Shown: positions 181 through 36,745 of the stretch, in pieces
How positions within the stretch are numbered: position 1 is the stretch's first letter
How the letters are laid out: every line of letters starts with the position of its first letter
Sequence record: MW394391.1
Strand: one strand, 5' to 3'
DNA: 64,000 bases
Origin: Klebsiella phage vB_KpM_FBKp24
Notes under the pieces: model-generated
The model's database searches: none
What the model was told of the DNA's origin: nothing
The model's input: the letters and a program-made list of their open reading frames with translations, nothing else
Translations under genes and position numbers: made by a program

Positions 181-455
181 TATCGTTCCCCTATTGCGCC
201 TAGTTCAGTTTTAACCCAACTAAAACAATATTTCCCTTCGTACTGTGTATTCATGAGCGCCTTAGGAGTGGTTTTGGTAGGATCAAAAACACAGACGAAG
301 ATACGATTGAAACGTTCTTCTCCCTTGTAGATAAATAACCCCTCGCGATTAAAAACTGCGGATACGAACCCTGGTAAAGTTTTAAGAAATTCTAATGCCT
401 TTTCTTGGTCTTTTTTAAGGTTCCCTGTTGAAAATTCCACATTAATTACTTTCAT
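180..455 (-). CDS. hypothetical protein (91 aa)
   Basis: ORF track; tightly packed in minus-strand operon, 14-nt overlap with next gene. Confidence 0.45.
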   Translation of the reverse strand: MKVINVEFSTGNLKKDQEKALEFLKTLPGFVSAVFNREGLFIYKGEERFNRIFVCVFDPTKTTPKALMNTQYEGKYCFSWVKTELGAIGER

Positions 456-1161
456 TATTATTCCCCTGTGCAGTTAGACCAAAATAATGACATTTACCTT
501 GCGCAGCAACTCGGTATTTCTTTGCGTGCGCTGCACCAAGCGCAGTGTAAAACTTGAGATTGCTGATGTAGTCAATATTCCTTTCCGTAAACTCTTCACG
601 TGTCTGCCCGAACCGAATACCGATCTCTTGGTACAACCCGTTAAAGATATCTTCATCGAGATAAGACATTGCGTAAAGTTGATCGGCGTCCCGAATAATG
701 CCGAATAAATAACGCATACCGGTACCACCGGGATACTGCGGAAAAGGGTCGTCGAAGTTATAATGCGTGAATCCAACTAATAAAGTGATCATCGCTTTAT
801 TAGCCGTAGGAAACTCACACCAGAAACCTAATTGCTCAAGTTGCTGTAAAGCGTGCTCGATATTTTTCCAGTCATCTTTCTCTCCCAAATGACAGAAATC
901 GTGAACTAACCCTGCAATGACGGCTGATTCAAAATCCTTCTCAGAGAGTCCGTAATTTGATGGCTCAAGATTAGAAAGAAGATAACTTGTTAATACACCA
1001 ACGCCAATTAAATGGTGCGTAGAATGATAAGGGCGGTCGACGTTGTGTTTTTCCACCCACTGCATCATTTTACCGTATCGATTAAAGAATTGTCGTCCCC
1101 AGATAGGGTTAAACTCTTCTAACGAATACGCTTCCCAGAAGTTTGAAAATTCACTATTCAT
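442..1161 (-). CDS. HD-domain phosphohydrolase (possible (deoxy)nucleotidase)
   Basis: H..HH(47)...VHDFCH(87)...IIRDADQL pattern typical of HD superfamily metal-dependent phosphohydrolases. Confidence 0.5.
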   Translation of the reverse strand: MNSEFSNFWEAYSLEEFNPIWGRQFFNRYGKMMQWVEKHNVDRPYHSTHHLIGVGVLTSYLLSNLEPSNYGLSEKDFESAVIAGLVHDFCHLGEKDDWKNIEHALQQLEQLGFWCEFPTANKAMITLLVGFTHYNFDDPFPQYPGGTGMRYLFGIIRDADQLYAMSYLDEDIFNGLYQEIGIRFGQTREEFTERNIDYISNLKFYTALGAAHAKKYRVAAQGKCHYFGLTAQGNNNESN

Positions 1162-7042: not shown

Positions 7043-7555
7043 TCAATGAACAATCTTAATGAGAACTTCATTAATCGAACACAGAACCGAATCATCTTTA
7101 CGGTTATTGGCGTAAAAATACGCGTATTCATTCCCTTCGTCGTCAGGAAGTACCGTGAAGGAAATGTCAGCCGCAACCTCCAGCCCAGTATAGAACCAGC
7201 CCGTAGAAAGTTTCCCTGGGACCAAATCTACTCTTAAAGCCATAGGTATTAAACTGTCGTAACCACCTATCGCTTTAACTACAGTCACGCAATTTAGTCC
7301 GGGGACCAGGGTCTGGTTATTTCGATGTCGTTCAGAAATATCCCCTAAAGTATGAGAATGAGACTGATGTTGGAATAACGTATAAGTGGCAACGTCACAC
7401 GAGAAAGCCCCTTTATAGAGTTCATCGTTTTTTAACTCAACACCAGGCGGGAGCGGATAGATCTTCATCATAACCACACCTCCTGTATTAGAGAGCGAAC
7501 TGGTCTTCAGTAGCGACCTTATTTCTTCAACGGTCATTTCCTTTATTTCGGGCAT
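7043..7555 (-). CDS. hypothetical protein (170 aa)
   Basis: ORF track. Confidence 0.5.
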   Translation of the reverse strand: MPEIKEMTVEEIRSLLKTSSLSNTGGVVMMKIYPLPPGVELKNDELYKGAFSCDVATYTLFQHQSHSHTLGDISERHRNNQTLVPGLNCVTVVKAIGGYDSLIPMALRVDLVPGKLSTGWFYTGLEVAADISFTVLPDDEGNEYAYFYANNRKDDSVLCSINEVLIKIVH

Positions 7556-7571
7556 TTGTTTCTCTCTGTTT

Positions 7572-8021
7572 TTAATTAGCAGGCGGCGGGTTGTTTTTCA
7601 GCCGATTTGCTTCCATTACCGGTAAATTAGCCTCAGTTGGGACGTAGATAACCTGATTCTTGGTTTGCTGTAAACTGTCTACCCAAAGGTAACGTAGATA
7701 CGCTTCGTTATTCTTCAGGCTGTCACCGATGATCTTGTTGGCCCGTGCTACGCCGCCAGCACGAATGACTTCTGCTTCGGCTAAGCTTTTAGCTGACTCT
7801 TTCTTAGCCTCCGCCTCCTGCACAGCTATTTGACGGTCTTGAGTGGCCTTCATCAGCGCGGCCTTACCTGCCATACCCTGCTGCCATACGTTGTAATACG
7901 GGCAGCCTGCCATGAGTAGTACAATAAAAGCCACAACTCCGATTGCTACCCATTTACCTACTTTCTTCAACAATGCTTTCAGTGTCTCATTGTCGGTGTC
8001 GGTGTTATTGTAATAGCGCAT
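7572..8021 (-). CDS. membrane protein with SPFH/band-7-like C-terminal segment
   Basis: N-terminal TM (WVAIGVVAFIVLLMAG) then coiled-coil and ...AEVIRAGGVARANKIIGDSL..AYLRYLWVDSL... resembling HflK/C, QmcA C-terminal region. Confidence 0.3.
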   Translation of the reverse strand: MRYYNNTDTDNETLKALLKKVGKWVAIGVVAFIVLLMAGCPYYNVWQQGMAGKAALMKATQDRQIAVQEAEAKKESAKSLAEAEVIRAGGVARANKIIGDSLKNNEAYLRYLWVDSLQQTKNQVIYVPTEANLPVMEANRLKNNPPPAN

Positions 8022-8272
8022 TATTTTTCCTGTTTAGTTAAGGTTAGTGGTTCACGCGCCATAACTTCATTGACGGTTACTCTTAGACCGGACTGCGCAA
8101 GGATTGCAACCACCTCTTCGGCGCGTTCCGTGGATACGTCAGGTTCGCCGGCTATTTGATTGAGCGTTGTCTCAATGCAGTATTTATTCAGTAATTCTGA
8201 AATAAGTTTACCGATGGAGCTTTTACCCGTTCGTGCCGGGCCGATTATATTGATCGTAATTTCGTTTTTCAT
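8021..8272 (-). CDS. small P-loop (Walker A) protein, 83 aa
   Basis: IIGPARTGKSSIGK Walker A motif; too short for a complete kinase. Confidence 0.4.
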   Translation of the reverse strand: MKNEITINIIGPARTGKSSIGKLISELLNKYCIETTLNQIAGEPDVSTERAEEVVAILAQSGLRVTVNEVMAREPLTLTKQEK

Positions 8273-8299
8273 TTTGTTTTCCTGTTAGGTTAAACTAAA

Positions 8300-8989
8300 T
8301 CATTTATTGGTTTTGGTGATATACCATTTCCAAAGACCGTAGAACGCGTTCATCAAGAACACCGCCCATTGCGCAACCTGCGCCCATGAACCCGGTTGAT
8401 TAAGCGCCGGGATCACCCACAGATAAATCGTGACGCAGTTGATAATGATCCAGAGAATCCATTGCTCTGGCTGCTGCTTGATCATCATCCACATGGCGAT
8501 GAGCGATGCGACTAAGCAGAATGCGTCTAAGGCAGGAAACGGATCCTGCGTCGTTTTCAGGTATTCGGTCAGGCCATACCAGAAGATAACCCCAACAACC
8601 AGATATGTTATCACGTCACGTAAAGTGATCGTTTTAACCGCTACGTCAGCTTTGGCTGGAGTTTTGCCCAGGTCTTTCGTCCAGTAATAAATACCGATAA
8701 ACTGCATGGGAAGGTAAATAGCGTTCAACGCCGCATTCGCGTAGAGTCCGGTATTGTACGAAACAATACCGTAGGTAATTACACCAACGGTTCCCCAGTA
8801 GTAATTGGAGACACGACCTTTCGCTACCAGAATAACGCAGATCACGTTAGTCAGCGCCGCCGTAAATTCAAGTGGGCTGGCGCTCCAGCTACCAGCGCCC
8901 ACTAAGATCAACGCAATGATCAGCCAAAGGTATTCGACTTTCTTCCAGTGCGCAAAGTCAGTGAACGTTTTCAATACAAGTGTATTCAT
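8300..8989 (-). CDS. pnuC: nicotinamide riboside transporter PnuC
   Basis: 229 aa polytopic membrane protein; C-terminal WILWIIINCVTIYLWV... and overall layout match recalled E. coli PnuC. Confidence 0.8.
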   Translation of the reverse strand: MNTLVLKTFTDFAHWKKVEYLWLIIALILVGAGSWSASPLEFTAALTNVICVILVAKGRVSNYYWGTVGVITYGIVSYNTGLYANAALNAIYLPMQFIGIYYWTKDLGKTPAKADVAVKTITLRDVITYLVVGVIFWYGLTEYLKTTQDPFPALDAFCLVASLIAMWMMIKQQPEQWILWIIINCVTIYLWVIPALNQPGSWAQVAQWAVFLMNAFYGLWKWYITKTNK

Positions 8990-9151
8990 TTTGTGCTCGC
9001 TCGTTGATAGTTGAGAAAAATGGAAATATAACCTGCGCTATGAATATTGAGGTTATCGCCGAACATAGCGCGATAAAGGGGATAACTGTCTCCCAGTATC
9101 CTCTTTATTTTACGTTGCGTACGACGTTGATGGGTCATGTATCTATTCTCC
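8990..9151 (-). promoter_or_regulatory. 160-nt pnuC leader / nadR-pnuC intergenic region with inverted repeat GCGCTATG...CATAGCGC
   Basis: longest non-coding gap in the left arm; 8-bp inverted repeat 9036-9072; AT-rich TTATATTTCC element on coding strand. Confidence 0.25.
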
Positions 9152-10366
9152 TCAATCAGAAGACTTATGGTGACAGCGATCTTCGACACTATCTACCATC
9201 GCCTGAATCAAAGTAGTAATCGATCCGTCAGAAGGCGCGGTTTGGAACTTACCGGGCTCATCTTTCCGTACTGCGTCCCACCCCAGGAACCCTTCGTTAA
9301 ATGCCAGTAATTGATCTACGGCCGCACGGGCTTGATCTAAACGGCCTTTGTACGAGTCGCCAGTAATAAATACCGTACGCCCCCGAGGAGTTTGGTTTTT
9401 AAACTCCAGGAGCATTTGTTGGAATAACCCGTCAGTTTTCTCTCGATCCGGATTTAAACGCAAGCCGTCATCGACCCACGGGACTTCAGGAGACAGTATC
9501 AGAACGAGGTCGTAGTGTTCTTCGGCTGCGATGGCGGAGACGATAGGGTTAGGTTTACCTTCGTACAGACGATGGTAATACTCCGTGACGAAAGCGTTAG
9601 TATCGACGAAACAAAGTCGATTAGAGGTTCGTAACGCTTCCTCCTCCAACTCTTTGTGACGATACGCAATCAACGGGTAGTCAGAACTACGCAGTGTTAA
9701 CTCAGAGCCCGCTAAGACGGTTTCACAGTACGTACGGCCGTACTCTTCTACCCAGCTGGTGTTGTAGAGTTTAGCGAGGTTCTTGACGAGATTTGATTTA
9801 CCCGCGCTCTCGACACCCATGACGACAACCCGCAGACAATAGTCCTTACGGACAATACTGGGGAGATATTCCCAGTTGGCGTAAAGGTTATCACGTACTT
9901 TAGTGGCCGAGATAGGAACACGAGTACGTTCACTGTCAACGATGACGTGCTCAACAAAACCGAGGTGAGTTTTGTATTTCTCATCGTAATCCAGTTCGCT
10001 ACTGAAGATTGCGATAGATTGAGCTTGGCTGTGTTTAGCAGCCAGTTTCCCGGCCTCGCTGAAAATCTTTGCCCCTAATAAAGCGGCGTATTCCTGCCAG
10101 CCGTTAGGATATTCCGGCACCGAAGCTTCGTCGATGAAATCGATCGTAACGTGTTCGGTATCGGCGTAGGTTTGTTGCAACCAGCGCAGACGGTTTTTGA
10201 AGTTCAACACCTGCTGATCGCGGGGAGATTGTTTGTCCAACCAACGTTGGTCGTGAGATAATACCACGAGGACGTGTTTCGATTGGACAGCAGCTTCTGT
10301 AATTAGGTTGATGTGCCCCAAAGTCAGGGGTGCAAACTTACCGATGACGACGCCTAAATCAAACAT
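9152..10366 (-). CDS. nadR: NadR-like bifunctional NMN adenylyltransferase / ribosylnicotinamide kinase (no HTH domain)
   Basis: GKFAPLTLGH (H/T)xGH nucleotidyltransferase motif at residue 9; RLRWLQQTY; WEYLP...VVVMGVESAGKSNLV Walker A of RNK domain; collinear with recalled E. coli NadR residues ~60-410. Confidence 0.85.
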   Translation of the reverse strand: MFDLGVVIGKFAPLTLGHINLITEAAVQSKHVLVVLSHDQRWLDKQSPRDQQVLNFKNRLRWLQQTYADTEHVTIDFIDEASVPEYPNGWQEYAALLGAKIFSEAGKLAAKHSQAQSIAIFSSELDYDEKYKTHLGFVEHVIVDSERTRVPISATKVRDNLYANWEYLPSIVRKDYCLRVVVMGVESAGKSNLVKNLAKLYNTSWVEEYGRTYCETVLAGSELTLRSSDYPLIAYRHKELEEEALRTSNRLCFVDTNAFVTEYYHRLYEGKPNPIVSAIAAEEHYDLVLILSPEVPWVDDGLRLNPDREKTDGLFQQMLLEFKNQTPRGRTVFITGDSYKGRLDQARAAVDQLLAFNEGFLGWDAVRKDEPGKFQTAPSDGSITTLIQAMVDSVEDRCHHKSSD

Positions 10367-10385
10367 TGACTTTCACCTCTTAAAC

Positions 10386-10697
10386 TCAAGCGAAATGATG
10401 ATACAAACGATGTAAGTGGTAACCTTTGTAGTTCATCGCGGTGAAGCCTTGTTCGTTCTTTACCACGACTTTGGCTGCGTAATCCTCCATCAAAAGGAAA
10501 TCGCGCCCTGACTTAGAAAGAATATCTCCATCATAAACCGGACCATCAACAATCAACTGATTCATGGTGCCGATGACATGCCCGACATCTTTGCGTTCGA
10601 GTAACATCGTCACGGTTTTCTCTAACTCGGCCGCGTACGCCAGATCGCTTTCTTCTTCGTTATCAAGATTGCAGATTTCGATAATGGTGTTCAACAT
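10386..10697 (-). CDS. hypothetical protein (103 aa)
   Basis: ORF track. Confidence 0.5.
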   Translation of the reverse strand: MLNTIIEICNLDNEEESDLAYAAELEKTVTMLLERKDVGHVIGTMNQLIVDGPVYDGDILSKSGRDFLLMEDYAAKVVVKNEQGFTAMNYKGYHLHRLYHHFA

Positions 10698-10709
10698 TTT
10701 CTTTTCCTC

Positions 10710-11105
10710 TTATTCTTCAGTCCAGGGATGAATTTCCCAGTTACGTACTTTATACTTACGATTCTCAAATTGTCGGCTACGAATGTAAACATCGACCTTG
10801 AGGCTGGTTGCGGTTGGCACTAAAAATATAACGAGATGCGCAGGTTCATTTTGATAAACTTCCGCAATTGAAACAAACGCAGAGAAAGGGAGCGATTGCT
10901 TTTCTGCACGCCGGAAGTTATCGTACAGTAGTCGCACTGCGCGGCGAGCGAACAGTTGATCATGGTACCAGCTATGCCGAATACTTTTCCTTCCTGTCTT
11001 TAATTTCAAAAAGAACAGGCGTTTTTCCGCCCAAGGTAAAAGATAACCTACTCCCGTGAGTGCACCTGACCAGAACACCCACGATAGCGTTTTAAATAAA
11101 CCCAT
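10710..11105 (-). CDS. hypothetical protein with N-terminal TM (131 aa)
   Basis: ORF track; WVFWSGALTGVGYLL hydrophobic N-terminus. Confidence 0.45.
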   Translation of the reverse strand: MGLFKTLSWVFWSGALTGVGYLLPWAEKRLFFLKLKTGRKSIRHSWYHDQLFARRAVRLLYDNFRRAEKQSLPFSAFVSIAEVYQNEPAHLVIFLVPTATSLKVDVYIRSRQFENRKYKVRNWEIHPWTEE

Positions 11106-11113
11106 AATTCTCC

Positions 11114-11347
11114 TTAATTAACGGGCGGTTTCTTGAAAGGATTATAGATATTCAGATACCAGATTAACCCCACGAAGATACCGATACAGATAAAAGGCCA
11201 TGCGATACCGATCGTCAGCACCTTCCACATTTTCATCCGTAAAACTACCCGACGATATTTTGGATTAACAATAGGTTTCCAAACGATCATCAGGAAAACC
11301 GCCAACCAAATAGCGCCGCCAGAAAAAGCGAGTATTGCGAGGTCCAT
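11114..11347 (-). CDS. small membrane protein (77 aa, 2 TM)
   Basis: LAILAFSGGAIWLAVFLMIVW and VLTIGIAWPFICIGIFVGLIWYL. Confidence 0.45.
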   Translation of the reverse strand: MDLAILAFSGGAIWLAVFLMIVWKPIVNPKYRRVVLRMKMWKVLTIGIAWPFICIGIFVGLIWYLNIYNPFKKPPVN

Positions 11348-22059: not shown

Positions 22060-23856
22060 TTAAGAAAGGTATGCGTAAATCTGGCGATTTTTAGCGTCTA
22101 TACCAGTAAGGTTGACAGTGATCGTGGTACCATCGGTGGAAATACCCACTGTGAAACTGACTCCCGTAGGTGTGCTACTACTATCACCCCAACGATTAGT
22201 AGGATAGGTTTTAAGATTGCCGAGATCGGTGATTAATGTCGGGTTAGTCGTCTCCCACCCCATGAGTAACGGGACTCTTAGGTATTCTAAGTTGCCAGCT
22301 GAGCCATCTCTTGATTCGATATTGAGATTGTAGACATTAGGAATTTGATATTTAGTTAATGCAGTCCGGGTGAATGAAAATGAGGCAGTGCCCCCGGCGT
22401 TTAATGTAATGTTTACGGGGCTACCGATAGAAACGCGACCATTCCTAATTTGAAATACGCCTACTGTACAAGCATTTGAGATACCGTGGTTGCCGAAATA
22501 CGTTTTACTAGCGGCAATAGCGGTTTCTTTAACAAAACCAAGATAACCGCCACTGAAATAAGAACCAGTAACAACAGTTACCATCGACGAACCATTTCCG
22601 GTCGTAATGATATCGTATTCCGGAGTTGCTGTCCCTGTGCCATCGTCATTCACCCCTCTTGTAGTTCTGATTCCGGTGAGTACCAAGACGGAGTCGTCAG
22701 ATTGGAGAATATTACATTGTTCGGTTGTCCCCGCCGTACCTTTACTACCATTACGCTGAATTGAGCAGGTAGAACAAGTGATTGAGGATCCCCCCATCAC
22801 CGCCAAACCTGCTTTTCCGTTCCTATCAATCAGCTCACCGGTGTATGTGTTACCTACCGACTGGTAAAGATAGATACCTTCTCCATCGTTCCACTCGATT
22901 CTCACACCCACAAACGCATTATTATTTGCGCCAGTCAGTAAAGAGATTGCCCGACCGGTATTGGCGTTAAAAGTTGTGTCCATTAATCTGGAGTCAATTA
23001 AATTGTTAGCGCCGAGATTACACCCGTGAATGTTACACCCTCTAGCGTACAAGGTACCTACGTAGTTAGATTTACCTAAGCCTATAGCCCAACGATAAAT
23101 ACCACAACGCTCAAATCGACAACCGTTAAGTTGACCGCTACCCTGCATCAAATTGACCGATTTATCTCTCCCGTCAAAATTGATACCGACGAAATTATGT
23201 CGCCCGGTGAAAGCGAATAAGTAACTCGCCCCCGCGCCCAGTCTTATAACTGTCCCGGTATTATCGAAACTACTGTTTGATGGTGTGGTATAGGGTCGAT
23301 AGCAACTCCCGTAAATACAGAACCCCATAGGTATGGTCACGGTACCTGCATGAACATAAACCCCGACTACCGGCGGATATACTAGATACTTTTCCCCGGC
23401 GTCAATTGCGGCTTTCAATGCATAATCAACGTTGACTTCTACACCAACAGTACTCTTAATGAGCAGTTGATCTTCTTTCGTCATATACGAAAGAATGTTA
23501 GAGGATAAAAGATCAGTGACCTTCGCATTCCCTATCTCACTTATTGAATCCATTTCCTCGTTTAAATCGCGGAGATTGAGGTACTTATTTAATGCATAGA
23601 CACCATTATCAGTTACCACTTGCAAAACGTTCTGCGATGACAGCGTCACTGTGGTTATGGTACCTGTTAAACCCCCAAGATCGAAGAACTGATTGCTTTC
23701 TTCATGAAATAGTACGCTTTCCGTACCTGATGGAATAACTGCACCAACTTCGGCTTTGATAATGTTACTTTCGTCGACCCCGTATAACTGAGCGTTTACT
23801 TGATTCTGTACCTTTAACCCTGTTGATCCGGAAGGTTGTACTAAACGATCTAACAT
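22060..23856 (-). CDS. tailspike/depolymerase-like protein C (598 aa; beta-helix; N-terminus QPSGSTG-type shared with F)
   Basis: repetitive G/N/T-rich beta-helix sequence (NxxGxxIxG repeats); N-terminus MLDRLVQPSGSTGLKVQNQ similar to F MQTNFIQPGGSTSVQSSG. Confidence 0.65.
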   Translation of the reverse strand: MLDRLVQPSGSTGLKVQNQVNAQLYGVDESNIIKAEVGAVIPSGTESVLFHEESNQFFDLGGLTGTITTVTLSSQNVLQVVTDNGVYALNKYLNLRDLNEEMDSISEIGNAKVTDLLSSNILSYMTKEDQLLIKSTVGVEVNVDYALKAAIDAGEKYLVYPPVVGVYVHAGTVTIPMGFCIYGSCYRPYTTPSNSSFDNTGTVIRLGAGASYLFAFTGRHNFVGINFDGRDKSVNLMQGSGQLNGCRFERCGIYRWAIGLGKSNYVGTLYARGCNIHGCNLGANNLIDSRLMDTTFNANTGRAISLLTGANNNAFVGVRIEWNDGEGIYLYQSVGNTYTGELIDRNGKAGLAVMGGSSITCSTCSIQRNGSKGTAGTTEQCNILQSDDSVLVLTGIRTTRGVNDDGTGTATPEYDIITTGNGSSMVTVVTGSYFSGGYLGFVKETAIAASKTYFGNHGISNACTVGVFQIRNGRVSIGSPVNITLNAGGTASFSFTRTALTKYQIPNVYNLNIESRDGSAGNLEYLRVPLLMGWETTNPTLITDLGNLKTYPTNRWGDSSSTPTGVSFTVGISTDGTTITVNLTGIDAKNRQIYAYLS

Positions 23857-23869
23857 GTTATTTCCTCTT

Positions 23870-23891
23870 AAAAGGGGAATAAACCCCTTTT
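23870..23891 (-). terminator. hairpin aaaagggg-aataa-cccctttt between tailspikes D and C (attenuator/terminator)
   Basis: 8-bp stem, T-run after on both strands. Confidence 0.45.
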
Positions 23892-23901
23892 TATTAAAAG
23901 T

Positions 23902-26649
23902 TTAACTATTCCCACCAATCAGAAGATCCATGATGGACGTGAAGCACCACCAGTTCAGTTCTTCTTTATTCAGACCGTAGCGGGTTTCGCCTTCTTCCGA
24001 TTTATCAGCAATGAAGCAGCTATACTCTTTCCAGTCTAAGTCGTACTTTTCCATTATTTCAATGGCAGCTTGGACAGTAGGGCCAGAGTGAAGTTTACCC
24101 TCGTCTCCTTTTGGACACGCTTCTTCTTTCCATCTCCAAACGGAGGGTAGCTGCGCAATCTCAGCAAACGCATGTGTTTCTTTACTCGTGCGAACTCTGA
24201 GATCGTCTTTCAACGTAGCATCAGAAGTAGAGGAAACTCCGTTTGTGGCGTATACTGTAGTAAAACGGAAACTACTCGCACCCATGGCATGGGTATTATC
24301 CGCTTTTGGCTGCATCCCGCTGGAGTTAATAACAAAACCAATACTATTAGAAATGGCATTGAGATAGAGTCGACCTACCGAATCGGCGGTCATACTTGCC
24401 ATCACGGTGGTCTGATCACCAGAGGTGTAGAAATAAACACCTTTAGTGGTAGTATTAGTTGAGTTGATGCCAATGTTGATATCACTGGCTGTTGTTACAC
24501 TACCACCACTACTGATCGTACTTCCAGAAGAGATTTTACCCAGCGCAGAAATATCGCCCGCATTAGAGAACGTAATGTAGTCCGTCGGCGTAGTAGCGCC
24601 GGTGATGTCGTTAATGTACGAGAAAATAAGTACACCATTATCATCTACACGATTAGTCCATTCGCGAGAAAGTAGCGTTGTATTGCTGATAGTGGAGCGA
24701 GTACTGAAAGCTTTGAATGTGAAGTCATTCAGAATACACTGATTAAACTGGAACGAACGAATACGGGCAGTGGCAGTGCTGTAGTCGACGATAATATCGA
24801 CATTACGGTTATAACTACTTAACGCAGCGTACGCCGTATTGAAGTAACAGCGATCGAAACCGATATTCATCGTTCCTTGGGTGATTTGTACCAGTTTACC
24901 GTTCGTATCGCTATATGTACCTTGGGCGTTATTAGTGGCTAAACGGCAGGAAGAGAACAGTACGTTGAACGTATTTTCCAAATATGCTACCGGAACAGGC
25001 GTTACGGTCTCATTACCGTTCTGGCTAAACACAACGCCATAGAAGGCACAGTGCGCAGCATAAATCATGCTAAGACATTTTGCATTTCGGTTATGCGTCT
25101 CGACGTGTCCGCCAAACCAGTTAATCGCATGATGGGGGTAAGACTTACTCAGCCCAATAATTCTCACCATGGTGCAGTTATTGGCAGTTGCTGTTTCTAC
25201 TGCGCAGTTAATGAATGTTAATTGGTTTGAATCGTCTCCGGTTGCGCCATTGTTTCCGGCACCAGAGTAAACAGAAATTTCAATACCCGCAGAAGCCTGC
25301 GTAGTATCTTTCATATCTGTCGTACTTTGAATATTTAAACCGATAAAGATGCTGTCGAAGGTCAATTCGGATACAAGACCTTTCGCAAAACCGTATGTTC
25401 CAACGTTAGTCAATAAACAGCGTTGTGCAGGCAACCAAGTTGTTGCATCACCAAGAACAATTCCGCGGTTATAGTTCGAGTTAGCTCGAAAACCGATGTT
25501 CTCCATAATCACGCGACAACGAGTGACCTTTAACGCATCAATATTGTCGGCGGCAGTTTGAATAATTGAAGCTGACATACCGTCGCCAACAATACGTAAA
25601 CAAGTCTGGAAAGTTGTCCCAGTTCCCGTTCCTTGCATGGTCACAGTCAGGCCAGACTTAATGGGGTAAACACCACCGGGGAAATATAGTGTAATACCAA
25701 CAAAATATGAAGAAGATGTCACTGATTTAACTGGTCGGTATTTTACCGCATCATTAATAGCGGCTTGTATCGCGGGTGCCCAGTCCCAAGTCTCCGGATC
25801 ATCAGGATCGGTTTTATTGGTGATTAACCCTGCGTATTCCCAAATGTTTTTAACCTGGGCGCTAAAGAAATCATTAAGCGTTTGGATCTTGGTACTAAGT
25901 GGTGTCCCTCTTCCGAATGCTAGGGCTTTAGTTATATTTGGATCGATCATTTCCCCTTTTGTGAAACGATCGTTTAGTTCGAGCTGGATGTTTTTGCCCG
26001 TTAAGGTACCGATATTACTCGCGCCGTTCGGTCCGGTGTACGTAGCCAGAAACGCTTCGTTAACTTTCTCTACGTCGTCACTGCCGAAACAGATCGCTAC
26101 TACGGTTTGATTTTCTTTTACTGGAGTAGCGAGTTTAAAACTCAACGTATTGTCGGCAACTAATTCAAATCCAACGTCTTTGAATTGACGCAAACCATCA
26201 ACGTAAACTTCCTGGACTGAGATATTCCCAGTCAGCGGAACAGTAAAAGTTTGCTCTCCGCCGTTACTCAGTCCACCGTTATAAACCCACTGAACAATCG
26301 CTCCTTTATCTTTCAGAGCTTTGTTCAATAGAGCGTAGGTCCCGTAGGTAATTTGTTCGCCGTCGCTATTAAGCAGAGGGGTGACGCCCGACCCGGCATT
26401 CACCCACCCTTGTACGTGTTCTTTCGTAGCGTCGGTATAAACGAAAAAGGTATCGCCACTGACTGTGTTAGCGAGGCCGCTGGCAGTATCACTATAGGCG
26501 TTTTCAAACAGAATACTTTCACGCAATTTTTTGAGCGTGACTTTATAAGTATCATTCTCTTCTTTGACTTGTGCGATGGGAATAAACCCATTCTCAGAGG
26601 CTACCGACAATGCCGGTAATTCGGTAATTTTTAAACTAGACTTATCCAT
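23902..26649 (-). CDS. tailspike protein D (915 aa) with conserved N-terminal anchor domain and C-terminal intramolecular-chaperone (peptidase S74-like) domain
   Basis: N-terminus MDKSSLKITELPAL...LKKLRESILFENAY (anchor family); C-terminus ...STSDATLKDDLR... resembles SD.xLK autocleavage/chaperone motif of endosialidase and T5 L-shaped tail fibre. Confidence 0.7.
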   Translation of the reverse strand: MDKSSLKITELPALSVASENGFIPIAQVKEENDTYKVTLKKLRESILFENAYSDTASGLANTVSGDTFFVYTDATKEHVQGWVNAGSGVTPLLNSDGEQITYGTYALLNKALKDKGAIVQWVYNGGLSNGGEQTFTVPLTGNISVQEVYVDGLRQFKDVGFELVADNTLSFKLATPVKENQTVVAICFGSDDVEKVNEAFLATYTGPNGASNIGTLTGKNIQLELNDRFTKGEMIDPNITKALAFGRGTPLSTKIQTLNDFFSAQVKNIWEYAGLITNKTDPDDPETWDWAPAIQAAINDAVKYRPVKSVTSSSYFVGITLYFPGGVYPIKSGLTVTMQGTGTGTTFQTCLRIVGDGMSASIIQTAADNIDALKVTRCRVIMENIGFRANSNYNRGIVLGDATTWLPAQRCLLTNVGTYGFAKGLVSELTFDSIFIGLNIQSTTDMKDTTQASAGIEISVYSGAGNNGATGDDSNQLTFINCAVETATANNCTMVRIIGLSKSYPHHAINWFGGHVETHNRNAKCLSMIYAAHCAFYGVVFSQNGNETVTPVPVAYLENTFNVLFSSCRLATNNAQGTYSDTNGKLVQITQGTMNIGFDRCYFNTAYAALSSYNRNVDIIVDYSTATARIRSFQFNQCILNDFTFKAFSTRSTISNTTLLSREWTNRVDDNGVLIFSYINDITGATTPTDYITFSNAGDISALGKISSGSTISSGGSVTTASDINIGINSTNTTTKGVYFYTSGDQTTVMASMTADSVGRLYLNAISNSIGFVINSSGMQPKADNTHAMGASSFRFTTVYATNGVSSTSDATLKDDLRVRTSKETHAFAEIAQLPSVWRWKEEACPKGDEGKLHSGPTVQAAIEIMEKYDLDWKEYSCFIADKSEEGETRYGLNKEELNWWCFTSIMDLLIGGNS

Positions 26650-26692
26650 TTCGGTACCTGTATAGTCTGGGTAAATAAGAGGGTATCTAGAT

Positions 26693-26709
26693 CGTCATAA
26701 AAACACAAG
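26693..26709 (-). promoter_or_regulatory. candidate late-type promoter motif (coding strand CTTGTGTTTTTATGACG)
   Basis: TTTTTATGAC element after terminator hairpin 26708-26731, ~45 nt upstream of ATG 26649. Confidence 0.35.
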
Positions 26710-26731
26710 AGCAGGGCCAATTGGCCCTGCT
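26708..26731 (-). terminator. terminator hairpin gagcagggcc-aatt-ggccctgctc
   Basis: 10-bp perfect stem. Confidence 0.55.
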
Positions 26732-26756
26732 CGTTATAGACAAATTATAAAACAAT

Positions 26757-26951
26757 TCAACTACCAGAATTGTCCTCGTTAGTCCTGTCTTCTAAAAGAA
26801 AAGAATCATCCAAACCCTTTTCTGATAGGAACCCAAGAGCAGCTTCTTGATAGTTTTCTACTTCTTCGAAGGAAACAATAGCCTCTCCTAGTTCAATCCT
26901 TGAAAGAAAATAGACGTTATCCCGAGCTGTATCTTTGTAAATATAAATCAT
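26757..26951 (-). CDS. small acidic protein (64 aa) translationally coupled to tailspike E (TGATG overlap); possible tail-fibre assembly factor
   Basis: ATG 26951 overlaps stop of E; ORF-track version 26757..26990 starts further upstream. Confidence 0.35.
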   Translation of the reverse strand: MIYIYKDTARDNVYFLSRIELGEAIVSFEEVENYQEAALGFLSEKGLDDSFLLEDRTNEDNSGS

Positions 26952-28936
26952 CACAAATACCCTAAAGTCGGATGTTGATCGGAAAACCAAACTGCGGGCA
27001 GTTTAACTTGAATGGTACCAACAAACCCGGTAAAGTTAAGTCCGGCGTACCCATATTGAGATGTCCCAGTATCGCAAGACAACATGTAAGTACCCATGTA
27101 ATTATCCGCGGTGAGGGTAATACCTGTTTTTGTCAGTGAGTTTAAAATATCCTGCTGTGGACCTAGGGCATAGCCACTATAGTTTTCACTCATTGACACC
27201 ACGTTAGTCGTGGCATTATTAGTAAAAGACTGAGATGAGACTAAACGACATACGCCACGTACGTAAACATTGCCGGTAGTTGCGGAGCCAGCTTTGACCG
27301 AACAGGATACATGAAATTTCTGTTGGCTATTACTGTTATTAATCGGCGTACCCCAGAGAAGGTTAACTGAGTTAGTTGTACTTGTGGCAGTGATTGTCAC
27401 CGGGATCAAACCGTCAGAGTCTGCATCTGCTGCAGAACCGTAGACAATAGTTGAGCCGTTAGCAACTACGTACCACTGCCCAATTGCTCTGGCGGTAGGT
27501 AAGGCCGCACCCGCGGTACCGTTAAATAATAACCCAGCGCTATTCAAAATGTAACCGTCAGTAGTATCGTAGGACGGCAAAAAGCGATAGGTTTGTCCAC
27601 GTAACGGGTAACGTATTCTGATTTTGATCAGGTTAGTGGGATCGTACGCCTTATAACTCCCATAAGCACTATTAACGTGTGGGCCATAGCAGAAAATATT
27701 TACGTTGTCAAGGTCGATAGCGGTGCGTGTAGTGGTCGCATAACCGATCGTTCTGACGCCACGATAAGGGTCGTTAACAAACGCGTACATGTAGATGTTT
27801 CCGCCGATCATTTTAAAGTTATTTTCGCCCGCGCCGGTTGTGCGAGATGGGCAGTTGGCTAAATAACGGAAACCCTCGACGTGACATTCAACCAACGTAT
27901 CTTGACCGATGTTCACTGGCGAATAAAAGACAACATCGTTTGTATTGTAGTCGAAGCTACAACCAAAATATTTAAACATGTGAACAGTGTCGTTTCGGTA
28001 AACTCCGCCCAAATAGTTATCGCCGATGAGACAGTTAACAAAACGCATGTTCTCGCCGGAGTTAATGCAGTTTGTGCCGGCGTCAGTTACTACGCCGTAC
28101 GCATTTCGATAAAAGTCACAATTCTCCACAACATCCAAATACGTATCGGTAGAACCGATTCTAATTCCGCCGTAAAATTGTGCAACTTTCACACCTGTAA
28201 TTTTTACTTCCCTTACATGGACATAACCACCAGACGGGTAAGTGGTGTTCCCAAGAGAAATACCGTGGAAGGTCGTTTTGTCGTATCCAGGACCTAAAAT
28301 AAAAAGTGCATTAGTGTCCAACACTTCGGTGTAGCTGGCAGAACTCCCTGCATTATTAGTAAATGGATTGGCTGCAGATCGGGTAAGTCCTGTAAACTCG
28401 CCAGTTATCTCTACGCCGTTCCCGGTAGTAAAGGCGCTAAAATCCCATGTCTGGTTAGTGTCGACAACGATAGAAACAAACGGTGGGACCCGTACTGTCG
28501 CTGTCATTTTATAAACTGTTTCGCCGGTGGCGTTATCTAATGGCGGTACACGCAGACGATAAGTCCCGTTTGCGATATAACCTCTAGCGATAACAATTTT
28601 AACAATGTCAGTAGTTATCTTATTAATACACTGAGAGAGATTATTTAAAGAAGCAGAAAACCCGGCCATCCATACGTTAATAGGTTTTGTTGTATCGAGG
28701 AGCCAGTTAGCTCCTTTGGCCGTTTTAAATACGCTGTAGTCGTTATCTGCGACTGTAGAACTTGCTCTGTATGTCATTATTTCATTTACGTCAGGCCCGT
28801 CAACGACCGCTCGTTTTAATAGAACGCGCTGACCGTCAAACCAAGGTTCTAAAGACCGTAACTCAGTTACGGACCCTACGGTCAAAAGAGAATATTCGCC
28901 GTTACTCCCTCGTGGCTTATTGAAATCAGTAAGCAT
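26951..28936 (-). CDS. tailspike/depolymerase-like protein E (661 aa; no anchor; paralog of F)
   Basis: LRSLEPWFDGQRVLLKRAV motif shared with F/J/K/G; C-terminus GFVGTIQVKLPAVWF similar to F GLVGTIYVKAPVHWF. Confidence 0.65.
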   Translation of the reverse strand: MLTDFNKPRGSNGEYSLLTVGSVTELRSLEPWFDGQRVLLKRAVVDGPDVNEIMTYRASSTVADNDYSVFKTAKGANWLLDTTKPINVWMAGFSASLNNLSQCINKITTDIVKIVIARGYIANGTYRLRVPPLDNATGETVYKMTATVRVPPFVSIVVDTNQTWDFSAFTTGNGVEITGEFTGLTRSAANPFTNNAGSSASYTEVLDTNALFILGPGYDKTTFHGISLGNTTYPSGGYVHVREVKITGVKVAQFYGGIRIGSTDTYLDVVENCDFYRNAYGVVTDAGTNCINSGENMRFVNCLIGDNYLGGVYRNDTVHMFKYFGCSFDYNTNDVVFYSPVNIGQDTLVECHVEGFRYLANCPSRTTGAGENNFKMIGGNIYMYAFVNDPYRGVRTIGYATTTRTAIDLDNVNIFCYGPHVNSAYGSYKAYDPTNLIKIRIRYPLRGQTYRFLPSYDTTDGYILNSAGLLFNGTAGAALPTARAIGQWYVVANGSTIVYGSAADADSDGLIPVTITATSTTNSVNLLWGTPINNSNSQQKFHVSCSVKAGSATTGNVYVRGVCRLVSSQSFTNNATTNVVSMSENYSGYALGPQQDILNSLTKTGITLTADNYMGTYMLSCDTGTSQYGYAGLNFTGFVGTIQVKLPAVWFSDQHPTLGYL

Positions 28937-28960
28937 TGTAACACCTCAAAATTGAAAGAC

Positions 28961-28977
28961 GAAGTCATAGAAAAATC
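28961..28977 (-). promoter_or_regulatory. candidate late-type promoter motif (coding strand GATTTTTCTATGACTTC)
   Basis: TTTTTCTATGAC ~25 nt upstream of ATG 28936, adjacent to hairpin. Confidence 0.35.
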
Positions 28978-29003
28978 GGAGGAGACACTTGGTCTCCTCC
29001 GAT
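28975..29003 (-). terminator. terminator hairpin atcggaggagac-loop-gtctcctccgat
   Basis: 12-bp perfect stem between tailspikes F and E. Confidence 0.55.
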
Positions 29004-29010
29004 TAATTTA

Positions 29011-31278
29011 CTACTCGTTAATAAACCAATGTACGGGGGCTTTAACGTAAATAGTTCCTACTAACCCAGTGAAGTTAATAGAAACTCCTATTTGATCCGA
29101 ATATGCAGCCTTTCTTACCGACATTGGGAATGCAATATACCCTACGTCAGTTAAACCGGTTAATGTTTTCTTCTTATTAAAGTGAGAATCTACCCCAACA
29201 GACGTACCTTGTGTGTTGGCTAACTGTGAACGAGTCTCTGTGATTGTGGCCACGCTACCAGAAACAGTACCTGTATAAGTTGGCGTATCGTAGTACTTAA
29301 TGTAGTTATACAAGTAAAGTCCTGATACGTAGTCACTCCCTAATCTTACCGAAATTGCGGAGGCAAAAAGAGGGTTAAAGTTGTTTGCTGAATCAAATCT
29401 TTTTAAGCATTCAAGAGTAATAACATTACTTGCTAGAGTAGAAGTGATTTTAATCGTTGCGAGCCCATCTTCATCCAGCGTAGCGAGTTTGGTAATGGTT
29501 ACACCGGTTCCAGTAAAACTAAACTTATGTTGAGTTCGACTATCGGTTTGGTTGTTGAAATCAGTATCTGTTGCCACTGTATCCCATTTCCAGCGCCACC
29601 CCATCAAAGATTGTTGATAATCACTCAAAACAGGAGTAGTGGCGCGAAGGGAACCGGATGGTGCTAATGTATTGTATCCGCCCTTAACAACGCAAACAAA
29701 CTGGTCCCCGGTATTATCTCCGTAACCAGCAACGGTTCCCTGGCCTGTGAGGGAGTAATAAGGAGCCCAATAGTAATCCGATAAAGACCATGCGCACTCA
29801 TTGAAGGTTACCCCGAGGTCTTTCGTTGGGCAGGAAATCATTTGGCGTGCGTGGTTCGCTCTAAAAGTGTCAGAGTAATAAGGAGAGGTGTACTGGTTAG
29901 GGTAGAGGTAGACGCCATTGAACATGAAAATGTTTCGAATGTTCCATGTGTTACCTGGATAGATCTGAGTGAGCTGAGGTTGATTTACCAACATATTACC
30001 AAAGCCTTCGATCCATCCTCTTTCCATCGTGACACGGGTATTAGAGGAATAAAGTGAGCATCTAAAAACATCCCCTGCCGTGTAGTCCAAACTCGTGTCA
30101 ATGATACTAACTATCGCGCCCTTATCAAACCAGAAATGAGCGGTATCGTTATTCCCAATAACCCCGTTAATGAATACTATCTTTTCACCGGAGTTAACAA
30201 TAGTTTGGTTAGTTTCGAACCACACCCCGATTTGGTTATTTGCAATATTGAAATCAGAAAAAGTATTGCAATAAAAGTTAATGTAGTTGATACGCAGACC
30301 GTACTTAAATCCTTCCACCCTGAAATTCTTGACATTAAGATCCCTGACAGACATCGGGAGCGTTCCATAGGTGGCAATTCTAATACCCGCGGCGTTACTT
30401 GTTGACTTTCCTGGGCCTAAAATAAAGAAAGACCCGCCATTAGCGTTAAAGAAATTCGACCCCTGAGTATCGACGAAATTACTATCCGGCATCTGGCCAG
30501 CTGCAACACCGGTGATACCTTCATTCGTGATAACGATCGCGTCATCATTTGTTAGAGAAGTGACTAAATAAATATTCCCATAAGAGACTAAAGAAAAGAA
30601 CGAGGGGATTTTAACTTGTTTCTCTAGCACGTATTTATCGGAAAACTGAGGAAAGAAAATCTGAGTGCTAACACCGAAAGTATTCTTGTTAGCGGAAATT
30701 TTGGCGGTAGTAAAATCAACAATTTTTTGGATTGCGGCTCCTGTACCCGTACCGTCGCTTTTCACTCCGGCCAAACGAATATCTACCCCTTTAGAGACAT
30801 CAACTTTCCAACGGGCACCTTTGGGAGTCACCATAATTGAGAAGTCATTATCAGCGGAAGCAACGTCGCTAGAATCATAATTGGCAATAATATTGATTAG
30901 CGGACCGCCTTGTACAGCACGCTCTAAAATAATTTTTTGCCCTGCGTACCACGGCTCAAATTTTCGCAGATCGGCGATAGTCGCGACAGATACTGTTGTC
31001 AGTGTAGATGGAAACGCCAGAACAGTAAAAGAACCTGCGTTCGTAGTTACCGTGGCTGTGGTTCCGGTAACAGAAACGCCACTCACAACTCCGGTGATAG
31101 CGGTAGTATTAAAAATCTCTTTTGATTCTGGAAGAATAGCAAAAGAGTAATTTGTCAGGTCGTTACCGACTTCCAGTGAACTGATAGACGTTTGCGGGAT
31201 GTTCAATAACTGAGAAAGAACCTCGCCGCTTGATTGTACGGATGTACTTCCACCCGGCTGAATAAAATTAGTTTGCAT
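29011..31278 (-). CDS. tailspike/depolymerase-like protein F (755 aa; no KISEL anchor; QPGGST N-terminus)
   Basis: start set to ATG 31278 (M6 of ORF-track translation; track start 31293 is TTG), AGGA RBS 7 nt upstream. Confidence 0.65.
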   Translation of the reverse strand: MQTNFIQPGGSTSVQSSGEVLSQLLNIPQTSISSLEVGNDLTNYSFAILPESKEIFNTTAITGVVSGVSVTGTTATVTTNAGSFTVLAFPSTLTTVSVATIADLRKFEPWYAGQKIILERAVQGGPLINIIANYDSSDVASADNDFSIMVTPKGARWKVDVSKGVDIRLAGVKSDGTGTGAAIQKIVDFTTAKISANKNTFGVSTQIFFPQFSDKYVLEKQVKIPSFFSLVSYGNIYLVTSLTNDDAIVITNEGITGVAAGQMPDSNFVDTQGSNFFNANGGSFFILGPGKSTSNAAGIRIATYGTLPMSVRDLNVKNFRVEGFKYGLRINYINFYCNTFSDFNIANNQIGVWFETNQTIVNSGEKIVFINGVIGNNDTAHFWFDKGAIVSIIDTSLDYTAGDVFRCSLYSSNTRVTMERGWIEGFGNMLVNQPQLTQIYPGNTWNIRNIFMFNGVYLYPNQYTSPYYSDTFRANHARQMISCPTKDLGVTFNECAWSLSDYYWAPYYSLTGQGTVAGYGDNTGDQFVCVVKGGYNTLAPSGSLRATTPVLSDYQQSLMGWRWKWDTVATDTDFNNQTDSRTQHKFSFTGTGVTITKLATLDEDGLATIKITSTLASNVITLECLKRFDSANNFNPLFASAISVRLGSDYVSGLYLYNYIKYYDTPTYTGTVSGSVATITETRSQLANTQGTSVGVDSHFNKKKTLTGLTDVGYIAFPMSVRKAAYSDQIGVSINFTGLVGTIYVKAPVHWFINE

Positions 31279-31303
31279 TTTAGGTCCTATCAAAACGTGA
31301 AAA

Positions 31304-31329
31304 GCGAAGGAGGAGAAACTCTCCTTCGC
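31304..31329 (-). terminator. terminator hairpin gcgaaggaggag-aaact-ctccttcgc
   Basis: 9-12 bp stem followed by T-rich sequence on minus strand. Confidence 0.5.
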
Positions 31330-31345
31330 TTATTTTCTTACATTA

Positions 31346-31639
31346 TCAGGATTGACCGTTAATACCAAAACTAGCAGATAGTTCTTTCTCTGCTTGTTCT
31401 AATATTTCTTCCCCTGATTGGCTTTCAGTAACGATTTTGAAAGTTACTGCCCCTTGAGAAAACCCTTCTATATCCACCGTAAAGAAAATCTCGGCGATAT
31501 CTCCTATATATTTTCCCCCGTAATTAATACTTGTAGCCGTATACGTGGCTTCTAGGGATTTTAAAGAAGGTGTAGATGAAGATCCAATTTCATCAATTTT
31601 CTCTTTCGTATAAAATTCTTTGACTACAGTAAAGCTCAT
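31346..31639 (-). CDS. hypothetical protein (97 aa) immediately downstream of tailspike G
   Basis: AAGAGGA RBS; possible fibre accessory protein. Confidence 0.45.
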   Translation of the reverse strand: MSFTVVKEFYTKEKIDEIGSSSTPSLKSLEATYTATSINYGGKYIGDIAEIFFTVDIEGFSQGAVTFKIVTESQSGEEILEQAEKELSASFGINGQS

Positions 31640-31650
31640 CTTCAGTCCTC

Positions 31651-36743: not shown

Positions 36744-36745
36744 AC

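Follow-up and report, generated by a model that had tools for sequence, protein, structure and literature searches.

A pair of genes in Klebsiella phage vB_KpM_FBKp24 very probably forms a NARP3-type NAD+ reconstitution module of a Klebsiella jumbo phage, a reading to which we assign a probability of about 0.82. The pair, a nadR-like gene and a pnuC gene (Table 1), resides in the 64,000-nucleotide stretch of sequence record MW394391.1 that was analysed here (the window). NARP3 was named in August 2026 for a pathway in which nicotinamide riboside (NR) is imported, NAD+ is made, and the Sir2-HerA and DSR1 defences are defeated (PMC13464706). In that work, the Bas30_86 and Bas30_87 proteins of Escherichia phage TrudiRoth were found to bind and import NR, to convert NR to NMN and then to NAD+ in vitro, and to restore NAD+/NADH pools. 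They also protected phages T7 and lambda against Sir2-HerA and DSR1, with a 10^3- to 10^4-fold rescue, in assays that employed expression from plasmids and heterologous phages only, with Sir2-HerA and DSR1 as the defences overcome (PMC13464706).

An earlier note, made from the letters of the window alone, had proposed that the two gene products convert external NR to NMN to NAD+, and that they might counter NAD+-depleting defences. Both proposals are borne out by homology, given what has been demonstrated experimentally for Bas30_86 and Bas30_87, and the interpretation, though right, has lost its novelty. The concept had been published between 2022 and 2024; the proposal that a nadR-pnuC operon gives phages an NAD+ pathway dates from 2024. 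The module thus carries little weight as a discovery, since its pathway, structure, mechanism and anti-defence role have already been published as NARP3 (PMC13464706). What the window adds is that NARP3 would also be present in Klebsiella jumbo phages of ~300 kb, the one closest to the window being annotated as nucleus-forming; jumbo phages go unmentioned in the main text of the NARP3 paper (PMC13464706).

Table 1. Coordinates of the nadR-pnuC region within the window.
Feature	Position	Strand	Description
pnuC	8300..8989	(-)	229-aa predicted nicotinamide riboside transporter; Bas30_87 homolog
Small ORF in nadR-pnuC spacer	8986..9138	(-)	50 aa, basic, pI 10.7
nadR-like gene	9152..10366	(-)	404 aa; NMN adenylyltransferase and ribosylnicotinamide kinase; without HTH; Bas30_86 homolog
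Clade-specific C-terminal tail of NadR	9152..9298	(-)	~48 aa, acidic, pI 4.8; from alignments
Ribosylnicotinamide kinase (P-loop) domain	9299..9841	(-)	~aa 176-356; Walker A GVESAGKS (184-191), CFVDT, WVDDGLR
NMNAT domain	9872..10366	(-)	~aa 1-165; GKFAPLTLGH (T15xGH18) and ISATKVR (152-158)
Shine-Dalgarno-like AAGAGGTG	10374..10381	(-)	6 nt 5' of nadR ATG; read from the sequence

Evidence for this assignment comes first from the match to the characterized pair. Residues 2-358 of window NadR align with Bas30_86 (E 3.6e-141), to which the enzyme is 62.6% identical, and the Bas30_86 crystal structure (PDB 9X6F and 9X6H; PMC13464706) settles, at this level of identity, the fold predicted for the window enzyme. 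Window PnuC and Bas30_87 are 47.8% identical. All 13 of the Bas30_86 residues whose mutation abolishes NAD+ regeneration are conserved (K10, F11, S37, E80, P84, G89, F110, S112, D115, V139, I141, E230 and D275), among which E230 and D275, essential by mutagenesis, correspond to E241 and D286 of the window kinase domain. Likewise, the NR-binding residues N45, Q94 and N180 of Bas30_87, each essential by mutagenesis, are present as N48, Q96 and N184 in window PnuC. The check for inactive catalytic residues proposed in the earlier note therefore found that the window proteins have kept all positions at which mutation inactivated Bas30_86 or Bas30_87. K163 and D164 of Bas30_86 are conserved, whereas R167 is replaced by leucine (L178) and K168 by arginine (R179); R167 and K168 were assigned to the pocket by docking rather than by individual mutagenesis (PMC13464706).

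The domain make-up of the nadR-like gene product agrees with the earlier description of a NadR homolog that retains both catalytic domains but lacks the HTH. Pfam places CTP_transf_like at residues 7-159 and AAA_28 at residues 179-324 (E 3.4e-30), and the protein also matches phrog_3462 (E 3.7e-124). The (H/T)xGH and kinase Walker A motifs that had been reported are found at T15-L-G-H18 and G184-VESAGKS191, together with I152-SATKVR and W297-VDDGLR. The NCBIfam model for trifunctional NadR, NF005988, gives 255.8 bits (cut-off 201), but this match spans only profile positions 65-407 of 411, and the HTH part is missing. Alignment with Bas30_86 reveals that the protein begins directly at the GKFAPLTLGH motif region. 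Moreover, an HTH could not be encoded 5' of nadR, because only 19 nt separate the stop of the upstream gene from the earliest start codon available to the ORF. The score against TIGR01526, an equivalog-domain model for NMNAT/RNK proteins, is 266 bits and falls under the curated cut-off of 341.15, and we therefore assign window NadR by its sequence to a phage lineage that has diverged within the family rather than to the canonical bacterial NadR proteins.

The relationship to bacterial NadR (E. coli/Salmonella, PDB 8X7F; H. influenzae, PDB 1LW7) is nevertheless clear in the shared NMNAT and RNK folds and motifs, and the logic of NR uptake and trapping is that of bacterial NadR together with PnuC (N. 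mucosa, PDB 4QTN). Unlike the trifunctional bacterial protein, the phage enzyme is without the N-terminal HTH repressor domain, and it carries threonine in place of the first histidine of HxGH. Whereas nadR and pnuC lie together in the phage genome, they are unlinked in E. coli.

The second protein is of the NR-type PnuC, as the earlier note had recognized. It exhibits about 7-8 hydrophobic segments, and it matches Pfam PF04973 (E 2.5e-43), phrog_1880 (E 1.9e-56) and the N. mucosa NR transporter of PDB 4QTN (E 3.2e-29). Its score of 121.8 bits exceeds the cut-off of 42.45 for the NR-specific equivalog model TIGR01528. The transporter does not belong to the enterobacterial PnuC subfamily described by NF011926, for which it scores 60.5 bits, far under the cut-off of 335, which shows that window pnuC was not copied recently from the host gene.

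By homology to Bas30_86 and Bas30_87, we infer NR transport, two enzymatic steps and a counter-defence effect for the window proteins. The trimeric membrane transporter PnuC would admit external NR to the infected cell, where NadR, which has no HTH, would use ATP and its P-loop kinase domain to phosphorylate NR to NMN, thereby trapping it inside. The NMNAT domain of the same NadR protein would then adenylate NMN to yield NAD+. In this manner an external precursor would let the phage replenish the NAD+ pool free of host regulation, since its enzyme lacks the part of bacterial NadR that binds DNA, senses NAD and acts as a repressor. Replication would be sustained while abortive-infection systems of the NADase type, such as Sir2-HerA and DSR, deplete NAD+.

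The end result resembles that of NARP1 and NARP2 (Osterman et al., 10.1101/2024.02.11.579819), in that a phage rebuilds the NAD+ drained by NADase defences. However, NARP1 (Adps and Namat) starts from ADPR and nicotinamide, NARP2 (Nampt and NMNAT) starts from nicotinamide and PRPP, and neither employs a transporter or an external precursor. The earlier statement that the NR route is distinct from these two kinds of phage NAD+ pathway stands. Within the window, NCBIfam matches for NMNAT-Nudix are negligible, tblastn searches with the Prs-like, nicotinamide-phosphoribosyltransferase-like (Nampt-like) and KptA proteins of the closest relative yield no match, and no NAD genes other than nadR and pnuC were found.

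That relative is the 300-kb Klebsiella phage vB_KpM_Centimanus, with which the window is collinear at 93-99% nucleotide identity; for Siatvirus phages the identity is ~83%. These matches confirm that the DNA is of phage origin. The module thus resides in a jumbo phage genome of ~300 kb, and the nucleus-forming annotation of the closest relative reflects nuclear shell and PhuZ proteins. Orthologs of nadR and pnuC occupy the same genomic position in the relatives at 83-94% nucleotide identity, and the names nadR and pnuC are in use for them in GenBank/RefSeq entries for Centimanus (OZ240615), KpLz-2_45 (NC_061418), LPKP23 and MJ359, as well as for Klebsiella phage Miami. The window phage is identical to none of these five, and what lies between nadR and pnuC differs. 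Centimanus carries adjacent Prs-like and Nampt-like genes about 36 kb ahead of the region that is collinear with the beginning of the window. Neighbouring genes of these two kinds are the hallmark of NARP1, a pathway to NAD+ that bypasses NMN, and we consider the Centimanus pair a candidate NARP1.

The same Centimanus pair bears on an alternative in which the NR pathway is only partly used, with the NMNAT domain completing a Nampt-fed nicotinamide route, or with the PnuC-family protein carrying some other substrate. The PnuT and PnuX relatives of PnuC carry thiamine and riboflavin. In addition to the Prs-like and Nampt-like genes, the low NF011926 score of the transporter and the observation that phages can have NadR together with NadV or NadM (PMC9503650) would fit partial use. 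Nonetheless we regard it as quite improbable, given that the kinase still has a Walker A motif as well as the E230/D275 equivalents and is under strong purifying selection, that the transporter passes TIGR01528 and retains 3/3 of the Bas30_87 NR-binding residues, that transporter and NR kinase are linked across hundreds of phages, and that a pair of the Centimanus type marks NARP1 rather than a route through NMN.

A more serious competitor, although still one that we hold only as a tentative possibility, is that the module serves mainly as a general metabolic booster (auxiliary metabolic genes) for a 300-kb phage, meeting its heavy biosynthetic demand and supplying its NAD+-consuming enzymes, with the same biochemistry but another selective benefit. 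An NAD+-consuming RNA 2'-phosphotransferase (kptA) is encoded by Centimanus on the same strand, ~8 kb further downstream, and NAD+ synthesis genes are reported to be enriched in medium and jumbo phages generally (PMC9503650, PMC11662467). However, the same module is found in 110-kb T5-like phages, where it is the source of the 10^3- to 10^4-fold rescue from Sir2-HerA and DSR1, and a metabolic role and defence evasion are not mutually exclusive.

Several features are shared with NARP3 of TrudiRoth, including a co-oriented nadR-then-pnuC pair, a virulent enterobacterial phage as the carrier, and an HTH-less NMNAT-RNK enzyme. The co-oriented order is common to the window phage, TrudiRoth, IrmaTschudi and Miami. 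Differences are also evident. TrudiRoth is a 114-kb T5-like siphovirus, whereas the window module resides in a ~300-kb jumbo myovirus; window NadR carries an 11-aa loop insertion and the C-terminal tail, both of which distinguish it from Bas30_86; and its leucine at the position of Bas30_86 R167 is a further departure. Of the local differences, the jumbo-phage setting, the NadR tail and the variable slot between the genes are minor. The points against the NARP3 reading are this substitution, the 162-nt separation of the genes, and the candidate NARP1 pair in the closest relative, on account of which the share of the module in defence escape could be partial or redundant. On a reading that we hold to be unlikely, and if the nucleus-forming annotation is correct, phage DNA would be shielded and NAD+-depleting immunity may be a main threat, in which case NARP3 stacked with a candidate NARP1 would represent an adaptive combination.

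Selection on the two genes also speaks to whether they are decaying host-derived passengers that are functionless for the phage, which we judge to be scarcely credible. Apart from a variable tail and spacer, nothing was found in its favour. Six related phages carry both ORFs in intact form, no catalytic or binding residue has been lost, and comparison with three relatives gives dN/dS values of 0.03-0.09 for pnuC and the core of nadR; both genes are under strong purifying selection. Pseudogene decay was rejected on the basis of these ratios and the intact motifs. Recent capture from a Klebsiella host was rejected as well: window NadR scores 193 bits against E. coli NadR and 474 bits against Bas30_86, the phage copy, and both proteins resemble their counterparts in T5-like phages and in Miami much more closely than they do the NadR and PnuC of enterobacteria.

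The arrangement of the genes is operon-like, and in two respects departs from the earlier note, which had PnuC immediately followed by NadR. The outer limits of the two ORFs are exactly 8300 and 10366, as stated there, but they are on the (-) strand, such that nadR is transcribed first and then pnuC, and they are set apart by a 162-nt spacer (8990..9151) that holds a conserved ORF of 50 codons. T5-like NARP3 operons exhibit only a 1-nt gap between the genes. The small ORF is preceded by GGAG immediately 3' of the nadR stop, and its own stop overlaps the pnuC start (ATGA). A homolog of 47 aa is present but unannotated at the equivalent site in KpLz-2_45 and KpSz_1, and the dN/dS of the small ORF is ~0.16. 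The slot is otherwise variable, with a 157-aa ORF in some relatives and ORFs of 133 aa and 156 aa in MJ359. Neither the 50-aa ORF nor the 157-aa and 133-aa slot ORFs (Centimanus, LPKP23, MJ359) have sequence matches in Pfam, PHROG or PDB. This position, occupied by a translationally coupled basic protein of 47-50 aa or by unrelated ORFs of 133-157 aa, might hold regulators or further counter-defence genes. An 83-aa P-loop ORF after pnuC was considered as a third component and rejected, since it is present in Centimanus only and gives sub-threshold matches to AAA_18 and the cytidylate-kinase N-terminal region.

An Rfam scan of positions 7500..11200 at E<=1 returned no RNA element, including the NAD+-II 'pnuC motif' riboswitch candidate, and the window carries no tRNAs. 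Sigma-70-like sites occur at the shuffled expectation (6 versus 5.2). Terminator-like hairpins exceed it (9 versus 3.7), but none is located on the coding strand between or just after nadR and pnuC. These signals thus do not delimit a transcription unit. The phage lineage encodes its own multi-subunit RNA polymerase.

The NARP3 operon has been described as largely confined to phages of Enterobacteriaceae, mostly of Salmonella and Escherichia, with 124 operons identified by BLAST (PMC13464706). In a collection of 50,697 phage records, we found NadR in 770 and PnuC in 797, distributed over many host genera. Within each host genus the NadR and PnuC counts nearly coincide, at 174/173 for Salmonella, 45/45 for Klebsiella, 38/37 for Escherichia, 24/24 for Bacillus and 14/14 for Erwinia. 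With ~770-800 records bearing homologs, the pathway may be more common than the published number of operons. The host of the window lineage is the clinically relevant K. pneumoniae, and this lineage could serve for a native-phage deletion test of NARP3.

In alignments, neither Bas30_86 (351 aa) nor the NadR of phage Miami (369 aa) has the C-terminal tail of window NadR. Among the jumbo-phage relatives the identity of the tail is 30-43%, versus 92-97% for the NadR core, yet its frame stays open in 6/6 related phages, with a dN/dS of ~0.3. This fast-evolving acidic segment might dock NadR to PnuC or another partner, or might regulate NadR in replacement of the lost HTH. That the NARP3 operon of the jumbo-phage lineage has gained extra working parts, in the form of the tail and the polymorphic slot between the genes, is an idea we consider unlikely. 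The tail terminates in a semi-conserved (W)xMV(E/D)S(I/V)(E/D) motif.

The two genes that bound positions 8300..10366 encode a NadR homolog and a PnuC transporter, as an earlier note had proposed, and both ORFs match their Pfam, NCBIfam and PHROG families far beyond chance. In the NadR-like protein, a CTP_transf_like domain (residues 7-159) is followed by an AAA_28 domain (residues 179-324, E 3.4e-30), and PHROG 3462, labelled "nicotinamide-nucleotide adenylyltransferase", is matched with an E value of 3.7e-124. Both catalytic motifs that had been named are present (T15-L-G-H18, and the Walker A motif GVESAGKS at residues 184-191), as are the motifs ISATKVR (152-158) and WVDDGLR (297-303). The protein scores 255.8 bits against NF005988, the NCBIfam model for trifunctional NadR (cut-off 201), with only profile positions 65-407 matched. 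This late start of the match bears out the proposed absence of the N-terminal DNA-binding HTH, which furthermore could not be encoded because the first start codon of the ORF lies only 19 nt past the stop of the upstream gene.

The second protein matches PF04973 (NMN_transporter, E 2.5e-43), the NR-transporter equivalog TIGR01528 (121.8 bits, cut-off 42.45), PHROG 1880 (E 1.9e-56) and the PnuC of Neisseria mucosa (PDB 4QTN, E 3.2e-29), and contains approximately seven to eight hydrophobic segments. The proposal that pnuC is directly followed by nadR did not hold. Because the pair is encoded on the minus strand, nadR is transcribed ahead of pnuC, and a 162-nt gap keeps the two apart. An Rfam scan found no family around the module, and no convincing candidate for a sigma-70 promoter or a terminator was found there.

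Features of the nadR-pnuC module and its neighbours
Feature	Position	Strand	Remarks
nadR-like gene	9152..10366	-	404 aa
NadR C-terminal tail	9152..9298	-	lineage-specific, ~48 aa, acidic
small ORF	8986..9138	-	50 codons, basic protein (MTHQRRTQRKIKRILGD...), unannotated-looking, between nadR and pnuC
pnuC	8300..8989	-	229 aa
Walker A ORF	8021..8272	-	83 aa, GPARTGKS, directly downstream of pnuC
phrog_11227 protein (label 'protease')	7572..8021	-	149 aa, E 2e-60, N-terminal membrane segment
HD/PDEase-like phosphohydrolase	442..1161	-	phrog_16069, E 3e-22; weak PF00233 match

A cassette of this type in the E. coli phage TrudiRoth, consisting of the HTH-less NadR-like enzyme Bas30_86 and the PnuC protein Bas30_87, defines the NAD+ salvage module NARP3 (Yan et al., Sci Adv, 12 Aug 2026, PMC13464706). 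In that study, Bas30_86 converted NR to NMN and then to NAD+ in vitro, and Bas30_87 was found to form trimers and to bind NR via N45, Q94 and N180 (Kd ~0.66 µM). The pair replenished NAD+ and NADH depleted by Sir2-HerA, rescued phages T7 and lambda by 10^3-10^4-fold, also counteracted DSR1, and was effective in K. pneumoniae; rescue was NR-dependent, with an EC50 of ~4-6 µM (PMC13464706). Two crystal structures were reported (9X6H and 9X6F; PMC13464706), the latter of which matches residues 2-358 of the window NadR with an E value of 3.6e-141. Protein alignments with the TrudiRoth pair give 62.6% identity for NadR and 47.8% for PnuC.

Inactive catalytic residues, named beforehand as the observation that would count against this pathway, were sought by alignment and none was found. 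Mutations at 13 residues of Bas30_86 impair NAD+ regeneration (K10, F11, S37, E80, P84, G89, F110, S112, D115, V139, I141, E230 and D275; PMC13464706), and all 13 are identical in the window NadR. Likewise, all three NR-binding residues of Bas30_87 are kept in the window PnuC, as N48, Q96 and N184. Differences are confined to two other pocket residues of Bas30_86, R167 and K168, which were predicted by docking and not individually mutated; they are replaced by Leu and Arg.

The best-supported explanation, to which we assign a probability of about 0.8, is that the window nadR-pnuC pair works by the NARP3 mechanism. This reading joins the domain and residue integrity observed here to catalysis and a defence phenotype carried over by homology. 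PnuC would let NR in, the kinase domain of NadR would trap it by conversion to NMN, and the NMNAT domain would then produce NAD+. The NAD+ pool could thus be topped up during infection by a protein that does not share the NAD-responsive repressor role of its bacterial NadR counterparts. The main competing explanation accepts the same chemistry but differs on selective benefit, in that the module would meet the overall NAD+ demand of a very large phage. It draws on the presence of the NAD+-consuming enzyme KptA in the relative Centimanus, and on the enrichment of NAD+ genes in medium and jumbo phages (PMC9503650, PMC11662467).

Less probable than general provisioning is partial use of the pathway, wherein the NMNAT domain of NadR serves a nicotinamide route, as might be expected from the Prs-like and Nampt-like genes that lie side by side in Centimanus. 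However, this pair has the Pfam signature of NARP1, whose NAD+ synthesis bypasses NMN (preprint 10.1101/2024.02.11.579819). The two genes overlap at Centimanus positions 227059-229676 (genome segment L013:45059-47676), where they are annotated as 'ribose-phosphate pyrophosphokinase' and 'nicotinamide phosphoribosyl transferase'. Because these labels are the annotation signature of NARP1, the lineage may stack two NAD+ reconstitution pathways, NARP3 and a candidate NARP1. Homologs of the Prs-like protein occur in 1,576 phage records, Felixounaviruses among them; neither gene is present within the window.

The interpretation of the two genes as an NR-uptake-to-NAD+ route was sound from sequence alone, yet this phage pathway is already known. 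NadR was catalogued in medium and jumbo phages in 2022 (PMC9503650), and a preprint of February 2024 explicitly put forward the NadR and PnuC operon as one more way for phages to reconstitute NAD+ (10.1101/2024.02.11.579819). Jumbo-phage pnuC/nadR clusters were described in December 2024 (PMC11662467), and the demonstration of the pathway, along with the name NARP3, followed in August 2026 (PMC13464706). Local differences in this lineage include a C-terminal tail on NadR and a variable slot between nadR and pnuC.

NadR proteins of the lineage are 399-404 aa long, compared with 351 aa for Bas30_86, and alignment attributes the extra length to 11 aa inserted in a loop of the NMNAT domain and to the tail, which is missing from Bas30_86 and from the NadR of Klebsiella phage Miami. 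The tail evolves much faster than the core, with 30-43% identity among relatives (92-97% for the cores of the same proteins) and a dN/dS of ~0.3. It is nevertheless in frame in all six phages; a stretch of 45 random codons would be open by chance with a probability of 0.115. At its C-terminal end is a semi-conserved MV(E/D)S(I/V)(E/D) motif.

The small ORF in the slot has a GGAG right behind the nadR stop, and its own stop and the pnuC start overlap (ATGA). A 47-codon homolog, unannotated, occupies the same position in KpLz-2_45 and KpSz_1, and dN/dS for the ORF is ~0.16. In Centimanus (segment L001:20994-21467) and LPKP23 (L008:1230-1700) the slot is filled instead by an unrelated ORF of 156-157 aa, to which MJ359 adds a 133-aa ORF (L006:2224-3108). 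None of these slot ORFs has a match in Pfam, PHROG or PDB. Synonymous divergence differs sharply between the two flanks, which hints that the slot is a recombination junction: in the comparison with KpLz-2_45, nadR has a dS of 1.67 and pnuC one of 0.36, whereas the pattern is reversed against Centimanus (0.25 and 0.57).

Nei-Gojobori comparisons with three relatives yield dN/dS values of 0.03-0.09 for both the NadR core and pnuC, indicating that the genes are kept by selection. The window NadR is 65% identical to that of Miami and 63% to the T5-like NadR, and scores 474 bits against Bas30_86 versus 193 bits against E. coli NadR; the window PnuC reaches 60.5 bits against the enterobacterial subfamily model NF011926 (cut-off 335). 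Since the proteins are much nearer other phage copies than enterobacterial ones, nadR-pnuC is, judging from these comparisons, a module in circulation among phages, and on the same grounds a recent acquisition from the host is rejected.

A tblastn search of 50,697 phage records recovered homologs of NadR in 770 and of PnuC in 797. Broken down by host genus, the two counts (NadR/PnuC) are almost equal and thus consistent with joint carriage: Salmonella 174/173, Klebsiella 45/45, Escherichia 38/37, Bacillus 24/24, Lactobacillus 18/18, Prevotella 15/15 and Erwinia 14/14. These numbers suggest a distribution wider than would be gathered from the NARP3 study, which counted 124 operons (PMC13464706).

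Matches to the 2.7-kb module region come from eleven ~300-kb Klebsiella/"Serratia" jumbo phages, led by vB_KpM_Centimanus (94% nucleotide identity) and followed by Siatvirus KpLz-2_45 and its relatives (~83%), and the orthologs are already labelled nadR and pnuC in the relatives' GenBank/RefSeq records. The entire window aligns collinearly with Centimanus (93-99% identity) apart from a block at ~22070..47550 with almost no megablast match. The Centimanus counterpart of this block carries tail spike, tail fibre and EPS depolymerase genes, which suggests a swapped host-range cassette. Going solely by the Centimanus annotations, which include a nuclear shell protein (chimallin) and the tubulin PhuZ (segment L012:19321-21222 and 29476-30444) as well as split RNA polymerase beta subunits, the lineage would seem to consist of nucleus-forming jumbo phages.

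Centimanus kptA, encoding an RNA 2'-phosphotransferase (L001:12320-12889), would fall just ahead of the window start. The phosphohydrolase gene lies two genes upstream of kptA in Centimanus, and its product may therefore be a neighbour involved in RNA repair or in processing of ADP-ribose derivatives. The 83-aa Walker A ORF, found only in the window phage and Centimanus and absent in KpLz-2_45, LPKP23 and MJ359, has AAA_18 and cytidylate-kinase matches that are all sub-threshold; a complete kinase would be longer. The phrog_11227 protein comes after the module in all relatives, and two genes upstream of nadR, phage Miami encodes a membrane protein with an SPFH domain.
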